From a virus (taxonomy: Duplodnaviria > Caudoviricetes), in the IMG/VR virus record IMGVR_UViG_3300025015_000022, positions 20,465 through 84,464 of that record: DNA of 64,000 nt. One strand, 5' to 3'. How positions within the stretch are numbered: position 1 is the stretch's first letter; every line of letters starts with the position of its first letter. Positions 1,085 to 64,000 of the stretch are shown here, piece after piece. A model generated the notes under the pieces. That model searched no databases and was not told the origin of the DNA. It saw nothing but the letters and a program-made list of their open reading frames with translations. Made by a program: the position numbers and the translations under genes.

Positions 1085-1909
1085 ATGAAGCCCTATCTGC
1101 GTTTGGTCGGAGGCAAGAGCAAGCTGGCAGACCGCATCCTGTCCATGATGCCAGCGAGCTTCGAGACATACGTCGAACCGTGCGTGGGTGGTGGCGCGGT
1201 GGCCATGGCGCTGCTATCGGAACCGCCGCGGCGGTTCAAGCGCATGGTGCTCGCGGACGCCAACCCCGACTTGATCTCGGCGTGGTCGGCGGTGAAGTCC
1301 GAGGTCGAGGCCACGATCGCGCTGCTGCGGACGTGGGCGGACACGCCGGAGACGTTCGCGGCGGTGCGTGCACTGGAACCTTGCGACGACGTGACGAGGG
1401 GTGCGCGCTGGGTCTGGCTCAATCGGTGCAGCTTCAACGGGCTCATGCGTCTCAACCGCGCCGGCAAGTTCAACGCTCCGTACGACGCCACCCGTCAGGG
1501 GAAGCGCGACGTGGTGCGGGCGGACCTGCTGCGTGAGGTGTCGCGGGGGCTGAAGGGCGTCGAGATCTGGCAGCTCGACGTGTTGGAGACGCTGTCGAGG
1601 GTTCGCGATGGTTGGTGCGCGTACGTCGATCCACCATACCCGTCGCAGGGGTCGAGCACGGGGGACTTCACCGCGTACACCGCGGGCGGCTTCTCGCTGG
1701 TGCAGCACCGTGAGTTGCGGGATGCGTGCGAGGCGGCCACCGAGCGTGGAGCGCGGGTGGTCGTTAGCATGGGTGCCTGTTTCTACGCCGACAAGCTGTG
1801 GCGCCGGCCGCCGTGGACCGTGTACGACGTCACGATGAGGCGCAACGTGTCGTGCAATGGCGACGGGCGCGGGGCTGTGGGCGAGATGCTCATCACGAGG
1901 GAGGTGTAG
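1085..1909 (+). CDS. dam: DNA adenine methyltransferase, Dam/D12 class
   Basis: Motifs LVGGKSKLA, YVEPCVGGGAV, DANPDLI, LNRCSFNGLMRLNRAGKFNAPY and catalytic YVDPPY. Confidence 0.9.
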   Translation: MKPYLRLVGGKSKLADRILSMMPASFETYVEPCVGGGAVAMALLSEPPRRFKRMVLADANPDLISAWSAVKSEVEATIALLRTWADTPETFAAVRALEPCDDVTRGARWVWLNRCSFNGLMRLNRAGKFNAPYDATRQGKRDVVRADLLREVSRGLKGVEIWQLDVLETLSRVRDGWCAYVDPPYPSQGSSTGDFTAYTAGGFSLVQHRELRDACEAATERGARVVVSMGACFYADKLWRRPPWTVYDVTMRRNVSCNGDGRGAVGEMLITREV

Positions 1910-59335: not shown

Positions 59336-59413
59336 GTAGCACCCCTCGCGGCGACTCCCTTACGGGTGCCGCGGGGACCAACGCAGCTTCGCGCTGCACA
59401 GCAGGGGGTTCAC

Positions 59414-60355
59414 ATGTGTGAGTTCGCCTCGATAGTGCTGATCAAAGAGCAGGCGTTCTGGGCGCTGGTCGACAGCCACGAAGAGATCATCCGCAAGCAC
59501 GGGCTGCACGCCGATGGGGTCGGTGGCCCCAATGTGCTGCGCGTCGAGATCTGCCCGCCGTCGCTGGATGGCGTTGGCCTGCGTGCGCCGCTGGCCGAGT
59601 GGACGTATCGCGTCGACCAGGACATCATGCCCGAGTGGGCGGACGCAGAGCGTGACGAGGAGCGGGCGAGGCTGGCGCTGGCAGAACTGGTCGCAGAGCG
59701 GGTGATCGTCGACCGGACGCACATCAAGAAGATCACGGAAGGCGTGTACTACCTGATCCACAACGCCACGGTGGACGCCATGGGCAACGCCACGGTGGAC
59801 GCCAGGGACAACGCCACGGTGACCGCCATGGGCAACGCCACGGTGGACGCCAGGGACAACGCCACGGTGGACGCCAGGGACAACGCCACGGTGGACGCCA
59901 TGGGCAACGCCACGGTGACCGCCATGGGCAACGCCACGGTGGACGCCATGGGCAACGCCACGGTGGACGCCAGGGACAAGGCCACGGTGACCGCCTGGGA
60001 CAACGCCACGGTGACCGCCTGGGACAACGCCACGGTGGACGCCATGGGCAACGCCACGGTGACCGCCATGGGCAACGCCACGGTGGACGCCATGGGCAAC
60101 GCCACGGTGACCGCCATGGGCAACGCCACGGTGGACGCCAGGGACAAGGCCACGGTGGACGCCATGGGCAACGCCACGGTGACCGCCTGGGACAACGCCA
60201 CGGTGACCGCCAGGGGCAACGCCACGGTGGGAGCGGTCAACGATCACGCCACCGTCCGCGCGTACAACCCGCAGCCCGATGTCGAGATCCTCGGTCCGTA
60301 CGCGGTGCTCATCGACTGCACGGGCGAGCGCGCGGTGTGCAGGGTGGGCGAGTAG
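59414..60355 (+). CDS. octapeptide-repeat protein (NATV-x-A-x-x solenoid)
   Basis: N-terminal MCEFAS...SHEEII domain followed by about 20 8-aa repeats. Confidence 0.8.
   Translation: MCEFASIVLIKEQAFWALVDSHEEIIRKHGLHADGVGGPNVLRVEICPPSLDGVGLRAPLAEWTYRVDQDIMPEWADAERDEERARLALAELVAERVIVDRTHIKKITEGVYYLIHNATVDAMGNATVDARDNATVTAMGNATVDARDNATVDARDNATVDAMGNATVTAMGNATVDAMGNATVDARDKATVTAWDNATVTAWDNATVDAMGNATVTAMGNATVDAMGNATVTAMGNATVDARDKATVDAMGNATVTAWDNATVTARGNATVGAVNDHATVRAYNPQPDVEILGPYAVLIDCTGERAVCRVGE
59762..60241 (+). repeat. 24-bp tandem repeat array, 19 full units plus one degenerate
   Basis: Unit AA(C/G)GCCACGGTG(GAC/ACC)GCC(ATGGGC/AGGGAC/TGGGAC/AGGGGC). Confidence 0.95.
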
Positions 60356-62400: not shown

Positions 62401-62426
62401 GCGGGGGGATATTCCCGCGTCAACTC

Positions 62427-62503
62427 GCGTGCGTAGCTCAGTCGGGAGAGCAGAACCACCGCAAGGTGGGGAGCCGGCGGTTCGAGTCCGTCCGCACGCG
62501 CCA
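62427..62503 (+). ncRNA. tRNA-shaped RNA with GNRA-capped anticodon arm
   Basis: Acceptor GCGTGCG/CGCACGC, D-arm GCTC/GAGC, T-arm GGCGG-TTCGAGT-CCGTC, encoded CCA; anticodon arm CCACC-GCAA-GGTGG. Confidence 0.75.
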
Positions 62504-62504
62504 T

Positions 62505-62540
62505 GGGGGTGTAGCTCAGTTGGGAGAGCGCGCGTTGCAA
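62505..62540 (+). pseudogene. 5' half of a tRNA-Ala(UGC)
   Basis: GGGGGTG-TA-GCTC-AGTTGGGA-GAGC then GCGCGTTGCA; no adjacent T-arm or acceptor 3' strand. Confidence 0.65.
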
Positions 62541-62563
62541 TGCTGCGTTGACGGTGATATCGT
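62535..62563 (+). promoter_or_regulatory. promoter for the HNH gene, -35 formed by the tRNA anticodon region
   Basis: TTGCAA-17 nt-TATCGT with TGn extended -10. Confidence 0.55.
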
Positions 62564-62594
62564 AGTGCGCAGTGGAGCACCGTGGAGACATGCG

Positions 62595-63008
62595 TTGGCA
62601 AAGTACAAGTTCGTCAAGGCTCCGCCCGAGTACCCGGGGAAGGTCTACTCATGGGGGAGAAGGCTGCTGGAGCATCGTCTAGTCTGGTGGAATGAAACGG
62701 GGCACGTCGTTGGCCAGGGAGAAGTAGTTCACCATCTGAACGGGGATGGGTCGGACAACAGGTTTGAGAACCTTCAGCTTTTGACGGTAGACGAGCACAA
62801 CGAGATCCATCACATGTGCGATGCCCCGGTTGAATTTGTGTGCCCGACGTGCTCAACGCCGTTCGTTCGGTCTGCTCGGTACGTAAGAACCCGCACCAAC
62901 AGGGGTGCAAAGACGTTCTACTGTTCTCGCAGGTGCGGCGTGACGGGGACTGGGAACCTGAAGAAGAACAGGTTCTACAAGCTGCATCGAGAGCGTGCTG
63001 GGAAATGA
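62595..63008 (+). CDS. HNH homing endonuclease (HNH_3-like) with zinc ribbon
   Basis: LLEHRLVW...EVVHHLNGDGSDNRFENLQLLTVDEHNEIH; CPTC...YCSRRC; TTG start after GGAG; lower-GC codon usage. Confidence 0.85.
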   Translation: MAKYKFVKAPPEYPGKVYSWGRRLLEHRLVWWNETGHVVGQGEVVHHLNGDGSDNRFENLQLLTVDEHNEIHHMCDAPVEFVCPTCSTPFVRSARYVRTRTNRGAKTFYCSRRCGVTGTGNLKKNRFYKLHRERAGK

Positions 63009-63011
63009 AAC

Positions 63012-63083
63012 GGGCATGTACCTCAACAGGGAGAGGACCGCGCTTGCACCGCGGCTACGGGAGTTCGAGTCTCCCCACCTCCA
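63012..63083 (+). tRNA. tRNA-Ala(UGC) with mismatched acceptor stem
   Basis: D-arm CCTC/GAGG, anticodon arm CCGCG-CTTGCAC-CGCGG, T-arm GGGAG-TTCGAGT-CTCCC, G3:U70, A73; C4-C69 and A5-C68 mismatches; CCA not encoded. Confidence 0.7.
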
Positions 63084-63089
63084 CCGCAC

Positions 63090-63206
63090 CCGTGGCAAGA
63101 GGTCCGCGGTACAGGGGCCAACGCAGGCTGGCCCGCGGACGCCTGCTCGTTCTGGTCGTGGTCCGGGTGGCTGGCGCAGGGGGAGTTCGATCCTCCCGCC
63201 ACGATC
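63090..63206 (+). ncRNA. tRNA-like RNA with T-arm and acceptor-like stem but no canonical D/anticodon arms
   Basis: GGGAG-TTCGATC-CTCCC (63181-97) followed by GCCACGA, which pairs with TCGTGGT (63156-62) or CGTGGC (63091-96). Confidence 0.5.
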
Positions 63207-63239
63207 GATGAAGCGTACGCGACCGCAGGTTTCTTGCCA

Positions 63240-63285
63240 GCAACGCCAAAAAAGCGTTGCGCCGATCCGGTTTCCCGCGTACGCT
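63240..63285 (+). promoter_or_regulatory. promoter with overlapping palindrome upstream of the XRE gene
   Basis: GCAACGC-N7-GCGTTGC overlapping TTGCGC-17 nt-TACGCT. Confidence 0.5.
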
Positions 63286-63354
63286 TCTGTCTGCAATCGA
63301 AGCCCACAACGGGCAGTCCAACAACGGCGCCCACGCGGCGCAGGGAGGTGATCG

Positions 63355-63662: not shown

Positions 63663-64000
63663 ATGGGCAAGATCGAGAAGCTGACCCCGGAACAGGAGGC
63701 GCAGGTCGTTGCGCTGCGTGAGCGGTTCTTCGCGCAGGCGACGAGCACGGAGCCCGCCGACCGCGCACGGGCGGAAGCGGCGGCGCGGCGACTGGCCGAG
63801 ATCGGCGGCGTGAAGATCAACGCCGTCGTGTGGGCCAAGTCGGCGCAGGACGGGCAGCGCGAGTACGAGAAGGCATGGGACAGCCTGCGGGCCAGCCTGT
63901 GGGACAGCCTGGGGGACAGCCTGGGGGACAGCCTGGGGGACAGCCTGGGGGACAGCCTGGGGGACAGCCTGTGGGACAGCCTGCGGGACAGCCTGCGGGC
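63663..64000 (+). CDS. partial tetrapeptide-repeat protein (DUF6745-like), runs off the window
   Basis: MGKIEKLTPEQEA...STEPADRARAEAA, then (W/R/G)DSL repeats. Confidence 0.7.
   Translation, partial: MGKIEKLTPEQEAQVVALRERFFAQATSTEPADRARAEAAARRLAEIGGVKINAVVWAKSAQDGQREYEKAWDSLRASLWDSLGDSLGDSLGDSLGDSLGDSLWDSLRDSLR
63876..64000 (+). repeat. 12-bp tandem repeat, at least 10 units
   Basis: Unit (T/C/G)GGG(A/C)CAGCCTG. Confidence 0.95.

Follow-up and report, generated by a model that had tools for sequence, protein, structure and literature searches.

An HNH endonuclease cassette that probably invaded a phage tRNA-Ala gene at its anticodon region and left a hybrid tRNA

Group I introns (Rfam RF00028) occur in the anticodon loops of bacterial tRNA genes, with or without an open reading frame for a homing endonuclease. 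Integrative elements also target tRNA and tmRNA genes, which they restore with a 3' end carried in attP. In phages T4 and T6 the endonuclease SegB cuts inside phage tRNA genes at a T-loop motif, and it drives both inheritance and rearrangement (PMC2330249, PMC13096335). In fungal mitochondria, endonuclease ORFs of Allomyces (atp6) and Glomus (atp6, atp9, cox2 and nad3) make gene hybrids (PMC3630166).

Here, we describe a phage locus that can be compared with each of these systems. The window, i.e. the entire stretch of 64,000 nucleotides that was analysed, is the final 64 kb of an 84,464-bp virus record in IMG/VR that CheckV rates as complete. Within it, the 5' part of a tRNA-Ala gene (the stub) is followed by an HNH gene and a full tRNA-Ala(UGC), see Table 1. 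It is likely that a free-standing HNH_3 homing-endonuclease cassette invaded a single tRNA-Ala(UGC) gene in its anticodon region, and that an incomplete conversion resulted in a hybrid tRNA.

The closest parallel is the "intronless homing" of SegB, SegF and SegG, which are free-standing endonuclease genes, as here. Like SegB, the HNH gene lies within a phage tRNA cluster, is absent from close relatives and has dragged flanking tRNA sequence along; rearrangements of the tRNA/nuclease unit by microhomology are known for SegB (PMC13096335). However, SegB is a GIY-YIG enzyme whose gene lies between other genes and splits no tRNA gene, while in our reading the HNH_3 gene sits inside a tRNA gene, of which a stub remains, and is linked to a replacement tRNA of that isoacceptor. 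The fungal ORFs carry a foreign copy of the gene part that they displace, the native part persists nearby and the hybrid is what is expressed, and the same would hold here. In contrast, they affect protein genes, replace C-termini and encode LAGLIDADG or GIY-YIG enzymes, whereas in the phage an RNA gene is affected, its 5' side or the whole gene is replaced and the hybrid joint breaks pairing.

Group I introns share the target region, the anticodon loop of a tRNA, and one relative of the HNH gene (L117) is apparently intron-borne. The window differs in having neither a ribozyme core nor a viable splice product; a spare tRNA would replace splicing. With the integrative elements the locus shares a full-length tRNA regenerated from the sequence of the element and a displaced fragment that is left behind. 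Those elements, however, use integrases, act at the 3' end and are kilobases long, while here a nuclease cassette of ~0.5 kb is found at the anticodon, and it is the 5' half that is displaced. A full-text search of the literature turned up no account of an HNH cassette that splits a tRNA gene of a phage and brings a spare tRNA, a null result that is weak evidence. What is added here is a lineage specific for Ala(UGC) in phages of high G+C, a hybrid whose acceptor stem is mis-paired, a conserved candidate promoter geometry that includes a relic anticodon, and the apparently intron-borne relative.

Table 1. Features of the locus, in window coordinates, and the matching stub of contig L147, in coordinates of that contig.
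Feature	Position	Strand	Details
tRNA-shaped element	62427-62503	+	1 base before the stub
Stub of the putative resident tRNA-Ala(UGC)	62505-62540	+	GGGGGTG acceptor 5' strand, canonical D-arm, 4 nt of anticodon stem, TTGCAA
Candidate HNH promoter	62535-62563	+	TTGCAA, 17 nt, TGa-TATCGT (62558-62563)
Probable inserted cassette core	62541-63011	+	low G+C; absent from relative L046
HNH_3 homing-endonuclease gene	62595-63008	+	137 aa; TTG start; stop TGA 63006-63008
Probable hybrid tRNA-Ala(UGC)	63012-63085	+	ARAGORN; Rfam tRNA, 52.1 bits; anticodon TGC 63045-63047
Putative resident 3' acceptor strand CACCTCC and discriminator A	63076-63083	+	continuous with the native downstream flank
L147 5' stub	1427-1465		canonical tRNA-Ala 5' half, GGGCTCA...TTGCAA

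The stub is ordered GGGGGTG-TA-GCTC-AGTTGGGA-GAGC-G-CGCG-TTGCAA, with GGGGGTG at 62505-62511 and TTGCAA at 62535-62540. A preliminary description of the window had recognised here a tRNA-Ala 5' half that runs from GGGGGTG to TTGCA and ends at the anticodon, and this can be read directly at 62505-62540. Complete tRNA-Ala genes in 41 viral contigs begin with exactly its first 27 nt, and most of them end in CACCTCCA; the stub is therefore not a chance look-alike. A normal anticodon arm would need 2 nt more before TGC.

The same description had placed a complete tRNA-Ala(UGC) three bases past the HNH stop, and both ARAGORN and Rfam start it at 63012. It had also stated that the 3' strand of this tRNA pairs better with the stub than with its own 5' strand. 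When recomputed, CACCTCC (63076-63082) indeed pairs at 7/7 positions with the GGGGGTG of the stub, G3:U70 included, and at 5/7 with the tRNA's own GGGCATG, the mismatches being C4.C69 and A5.C68. Rfam, too, marks two acceptor pairs of this tRNA as non-standard. At its lowest energy (-21 to -23 kcal/mol, z +0.27), 63012-63085 does not fold into a cloverleaf, while swapping the 7 nt of the stub into it restores a perfect cloverleaf at -31.5 kcal/mol. G3:U70 and A73 are retained. As far as folding predictions can tell, the hybrid tRNA is probably impaired or functions poorly, and some alanine tRNA may still form.

The tRNA 5' part that adjoins the HNH gene differs from native-type tRNA-Ala genes: the cassette brought both its GGGCATG strand and its atypical D-arm (CCTC/GAGG). 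Non-canonical D-arms are a common feature of the cassette-side tRNAs. An exact search for the odd D-arm in viral contigs gave no match, hence no donor was found.

The preliminary description had proposed a comparison with relatives that lack the HNH gene. In the near-identical viral contigs L046/L048 and L047/L049 the flanking proteins are 78% (upstream) and 93% (downstream HTH protein) identical to those of the window. At the matching site, L046/L047 has no HNH gene and no fragment beside a mismatched tRNA; it has one intact tRNA-Ala(UGC), GGGGATG...CATCTCC, located 1 nt after the same tRNA-like neighbour. The window and L046 are identical from the start of the tRNA to about position 29, except for G5 versus A5, and agreement resumes at the last five acceptor bases (CTCCA); the downstream sequence that is common to L046/L047 and the window begins at CTCCAccgcacccgtggcaag. 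Further, the difference at position 5 (G in the window, A in L046) co-varies with position 68 (C and T, respectively), which shows that a single tRNA once comprised both the stub and the 3' strand downstream.

This is the sole HNH-less relative found, and it is ~10% diverged; its anticodon stem and T-arm differ from those of the window, too much for it to serve as a map of the right junction. The exact ancestral allele, an intact GGGGGTG...CACCTCC tRNA, is not seen in it. Judged from the sequence, the true right end of the cassette would lie inside the following tRNA. The T-loop TTCGAGT is common to the hybrid and to the cassette tRNA of L147 (see below), while TTCGATC is found in the intact tRNA-Ala of L046 and in the displaced 3' half of L147; there is a weak hint that the right crossover may be located after the T-arm.

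The G+C of the insert is 0.55-0.61, compared with ~0.70 in the flanks, and the cassette DNA is foreign by composition. The ORF in it matches HNH_3 (PF13392) with 43.2 bits (E 3e-11, profile cut-off 24.8). Since homologues begin at the same residues, M-x-KY-K/R-FVKAP, we assign the start to 62595, and GGAGA (62584-62588) is found 6 nt before this TTG. The protein is full length, with an HNH motif and a C-terminal CxxC...CxxxC zinc ribbon. Residues H27, H47, N49, D54, N55, N59, H68 and H72 are invariant across six homologues, and most homologues have the C-terminal Cys pairs. The locus thus has the marks of a homing endonuclease, i.e. presence/absence polymorphism, foreign composition and a divergent flank carried along.

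Two observations concern gene calling. The 234-aa ORF that the gene caller reports for this gene (P0001) reads through two tRNA-like elements into the HNH gene, and the called N-terminus of the homologue P0004 resembles, by eye only, the translation of a tRNA T-arm.

The idea that the HNH gene was inserted at the anticodon, put forward in the preliminary description, is thus supported by the empty site in L046/L047, by the foreign composition and by the covariation. The accompanying idea that the cassette supplied a replacement 5' half needs adjustment in view of L147, where the cassette carries a whole tRNA-Ala.

The phage has a G+C of ~70% and originates from groundwater metagenomes. Its terminase is ~25% identical to Streptomyces phage terminases, a similarity too weak for naming a host. 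The DNA of the locus gave no match in a phage collection, and a scan of a single metagenome found only one distant relative, with no tRNAs upstream.

The layout of stub, HNH gene and tRNA is not an assembly artefact. It could be argued that two genomes bearing tRNA-Ala genes were joined into a chimera, as tRNA genes are repeats that are prone to mis-joining, and tRNA contigs from other organisms do pile up on 62424-62591. However, two runs of one study have the whole region on single contigs with zero differences, both the left (62468-62680) and the right (62887-63331) junction are crossed by contigs without errors that come from a second study and from different years, and a near-identical version of the 234-aa read-through gene call, with 1 residue different, is on record on another contig. 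The probability of a chimera is therefore negligible. In the same runs of the second study the HNH-bearing phage has a low depth, and a divergent relative, with flanks that follow L046 where they depart from the window, is deeper. A mixed infection of one host by the two is conceivable.

Next, we studied the homologues of the HNH protein. A profile of the closest proteins identified 80 viral HNH loci. Only 10 of these contain any tRNA, and 9 of the 10 are among the 11 best matches. In these nine a tRNA on the same strand starts between -76 and +40 nt from the HNH stop, and the remaining top match, L149, has a degenerate tRNA-Ala in that position. The four best homologues all adjoin tRNA-Ala(UGC), and the following ones adjoin tRNAs for Trp, Asn, Asp and Arg. 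The nearest homologues are located in tRNA arrays of phages. The HNH ORF of several loci terminates within the tRNA, which means that the gene and the 5' part of the tRNA are one physical unit.

The most informative comparator is L147, an 82-kb contig that is otherwise unrelated to the phage of the window and whose HNH protein is 53% identical. Here, a cassette tRNA-Ala(UGC) overlaps the HNH stop, and its acceptor strands GGGGTCA and TGGCTCC pair at 7/7 positions. After a spacer of ~105 nt follows a displaced tRNA-Ala 3' part with the loop CTTGCAA, a T-arm and TGAGTCC-ACCA. The TGAGTCC of this part pairs 7/7 with the stub and 6/7 with the 5' strand of the cassette tRNA. Read in this way, L147 appears to have the HNH gene and a whole tRNA-Ala between the two halves of its resident tRNA-Ala. 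Both in L147 and in the window, remains of the resident tRNA flank a nuclease gene plus a tRNA of the same isoacceptor; the spare tRNA is self-consistent in L147 (7/7), not in the window (5/7). The anticodon region of the stub is 1 nt too long in L147 and, as described above, 2 nt too short in the window, so it is either decayed or cassette-borne there.

Degenerate tRNA-like 5' stubs precede the HNH gene in L148, L149 and L156, and in the Ala-linked L148 and L149 the tRNAs are degenerate as well. When the upstream region was aligned locally with the 5' half of the downstream tRNA, only the window and L146 were significant, and L146 has a complete tRNA upstream. What had looked like tRNA-Asn stubs in L153 and L154 gave non-significant local alignments and was dropped. 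A loose regular expression for the D-arm gave mostly noise, and only L147, L156, L117 and L155 looked real. With a strict stub-plus-promoter pattern, only the contig of L147 was matched in IMG/VR.

It had been noted in the preliminary description that TATCGT, preceded by TGa, is located exactly 17 nt after TTGCAA and upstream of the HNH gene, and this too can be read directly. A generic scan for sigma-70 promoters and terminators returned 0 sites and did not flag this candidate. The pattern TTG-N20-TA-N3-T occurs 4 times in 64 kb against 2.9 expected, a count that is not above chance. All four sites are on the + (coding) strand, and one of the others has the same TATCGT. At least the site at 63257 and the one of the candidate HNH promoter lie in non-coding DNA upstream of a gene; the former precedes the HTH gene, and TTG and TAC..T hexamers 17 nt apart are also found in L046 and L065.

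In L147, TTGCAA is followed by 17 nt ending in TGA, then by TACTGT, and 7 nt further on by ATG, which suggests that the HNH message may be leaderless there. The spacing TTGCAA-N17-TGA-TAYYGT is thus shared between L147 and the window, while the sequence of the spacer differs. Further, in L148 and L149 TGn-TAnnn(T/G) is found 5-7 nt before ATG. That the relic anticodon loop TTGCAA may serve as the -35 box of the cassette promoter has moderate comparative support, because L147 keeps the same spacing around a different spacer, even as the stubs of both phages have lost their tRNA geometry.

The arrangement could also have arisen with no targeted insertion, if an intergenic HNH gene lay between tandem tRNA-Ala genes and a deletion or illegitimate recombination followed. 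Some homologues are indeed found between complete tRNAs (L146, L152), and microhomology rearrangements driven by homing endonuclease genes are documented in tRNA clusters (PMC13096335). We nevertheless find this origin unlikely: the relative has one tRNA-Ala and not two, at least two further events would be needed to join the resident 3' strand to a foreign tRNA, and the cassette of L147 lies between the two halves of a single tRNA, a hallmark of insertion. Alternatively, the HNH gene might be carried by a self-splicing, group I-like intron in the anticodon loop, so that the second 5' half would be intron sequence. This would agree with the 7/7 pairing between the stub and the downstream 3' strand and with the family member L117, from an Anaerolineae MAG, which is located in a ~435-nt insert that splits a bacterial tRNA-Arg(UCU). 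L117 is a decayed HNH_3 family member, its insert splits the tRNA in the anticodon and the acceptor halves pair 7/7. It matches group I introns with 28 bits (gathering score 50; E 4e-5 for a search of 651 bases) and has typical core motifs. From these matches the HNH family appears to include intron-borne members, and the Rfam search is sensitive enough for such introns. Still, Rfam detects a group I or II core neither in the window (E<=10) nor in ten homologue loci, and the non-coding part of the insert amounts to just 54 nt plus 3 nt. An in silico join at TTGCA or TTGCAA yields perfect acceptor, D and T arms, but the anticodon arm has a 4-bp stem and a 6-nt loop, which ARAGORN calls "tRNA-?(gc)"; the corresponding join in L147 is out of register. 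Further, the downstream unit is a full tRNA (52 bits), and L147 has a complete tRNA between its two halves. An intron is thus very improbable, and the earlier doubt about a clean intron is borne out by the 6-nt loop and by the lack of a group I or II core in Rfam.

The pairing of GGGGGTG with CACCTCC has also been considered as a functional long-range contact, in cis or in trans, that would form a tmRNA-like Ala acceptor or a split tRNA. In favour of it are the 7/7 match with G3:U70 and A73 and the defective acceptor of the hybrid itself. However, the pairing is predicted by common descent, and it is not conserved: the stubs of L147, L148 and L149 pair worse with the adjacent tRNA than the tRNA's own 5' strand does. 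Neither ARAGORN nor Rfam gives a tmRNA match or call, and the HNH gene has an ordinary ribosome-binding site and start codon. The tmRNA-like topology, which the preliminary description had offered as an alternative, is accordingly unsupported, and we regard it as extremely unlikely.

Returning to the invasion of a single tRNA-Ala(UGC) gene by an HNH cassette, the course of events could be as follows, where the cleavage specificity and the path of homing and recombination are what we infer by analogy with SegB and with the fungal mitochondrial ORFs. The HNH lineage would live directly upstream of a tRNA gene, to which it is physically coupled. The nuclease would cut a tRNA-Ala allele that lacks the HNH gene, within the anticodon loop or close to it, and the break would be repaired from an HNH-bearing genome, with donor homology provided by the old 5' stub on the left and by the cassette's own tRNA-Ala on the right. 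The 5' part of the target would then become a dead stub upstream of the HNH gene, while its 3' part would be replaced up to the right crossover. Here, this crossover would be located 3' of the anticodon, possibly as late as the boundary between the T-arm and the acceptor strand, and in the expressed tRNA a 5' strand of foreign origin would be combined with the resident 3' strand, leaving two mismatches in the acceptor. No splicing would be involved; a substitute tRNA, instead of a ribozyme, would keep an alanine tRNA gene in place. The relic TTGCAA loop, 17 nt from an extended -10, is probably now the -35 of the HNH promoter.

Since the cassette of L147 carries a whole tRNA-Ala, the window is better read as a partial conversion. 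A hybrid that does not fold into a cloverleaf conflicts with a cassette that "patches" its target, and this copy may be a dead end or may be tolerated. More tentatively, the stub could be the left homology arm of a "cut-and-patch" tRNA gene drive that acts on any tRNA-Ala(UGC) allele, its loop co-opted as a -35 with the 17 nt kept in two unrelated phages, and the ancestors of the lineage may have been endonucleases of group I introns in tRNA genes, like that of L117, with a spare tRNA later taking the place of the ribozyme; we regard this wider picture as possible rather than likely.

For annotation, the lesson is that tRNA finders report the hybrid gene only, and such loci are easily mis-annotated. 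As we read it, the locus would be a natural model of a cut-and-replace gene drive, seen at incomplete conversion and with a mis-paired acceptor stem. Cassettes of this kind would help to account for the turnover and the mosaic make-up of tRNA clusters in phages. In general, a homing endonuclease that carries a replacement copy would have a route into an RNA gene that is short, structured and important for function, with no need for an intron.

Directly upstream of the stub, the resident tRNA-Ala 5' half, lies an element that ARAGORN calls as a tRNA gene. Its acceptor, D and T arms are all perfect in the window and CCA is encoded. Its anticodon arm folds as CCACC-GCAA-GGTGG. A copy is found in L046, a relative phage contig with the same flanks, one intact tRNA-Ala and no HNH_3 cassette there. 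The anticodon stem sequences of this copy differ from those of the window with the pairing kept, and its anticodon loop is of 4 nt (UCUG) or 6 nt. The element looks like a non-decoding tRNA look-alike, conserved in the two phages.

Further, a third small tRNA-like fold is found downstream of tRNA-Ala. In the window it has a T-arm, GGGAG-TTCGATC-CTCCC, and a long closing stem. Its L046 counterpart occupies the same place with another sequence and folds better (z -2.3), and the closing stems of the two covary.

Coordinates of the features described
Feature	Window	Relative or homologous locus	Remarks
tRNA-like element	62427-62503	L046 4460-4533	ARAGORN call tRNA-Ala(CGC)
Third small tRNA-like fold	63154-63206	L046 4678-4750	3' of tRNA-Ala
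Intact tRNA-Ala		L046 4535-4609	
Low-GC endonuclease gene		L046 4911-5441	weak match to classic HNH PF01844, 18 bits, below cut-off
Split tRNA-Arg(UCU)		L117 1365-1860	split within anticodon; insert ~435 nt
Automatic gene call P0001	62304-63008		234 aa
ORF with long tandem peptide repeats	59366-60355		NATVDAMG-type
ORF with long tandem peptide repeats	63663-64000		WDSLGDSL-type

In the window, the frame of P0001 crosses the tRNA look-alike and the stub before it reaches HNH; the true HNH protein is the one of 137 aa, not this automatic call. In three viral loci with homologues of the window HNH (L151, L153 and L154) the nuclease frame enters or fully crosses a tRNA-Asn gene 3' of HNH, and in L151 its stop codon is the TAA in the anticodon loop of that tRNA.

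A split tRNA gene is also seen in L117, an Anaerolineae MAG contig. The acceptor halves on either side of the insert pair 7/7. Within the insert lie an HNH_3 ORF, which is truncated, and a match to a group I intron that scores 28 bits (E 4e-5) and so stays under the gathering score.

The 25 nt of T-arm and acceptor strand of the hybrid tRNA, the tRNA-Ala(UGC) following HNH, are matched exactly at the ends of short viral contigs (L002-L004). These sequences look like tmRNA 3' ends, and the matching ends are perhaps attachment sites of integrated elements. In addition, two ORFs with tandem repeats are present in the window, and the WDSLGDSL-type one continues past the window end, which is also the record end.

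In the intact tRNA-Ala of L046 the anticodon loop is TCTGCAA, with C33 replacing the near-universal U33. As pure speculation, this might be a polymorphism that gives resistance to HNH cleavage. The low-GC endonuclease gene of L046 is inserted directly 3' of that phage's third tRNA-like element; at this position the window lacks such a gene, so the same tRNA cluster carries a different nuclease in each phage.
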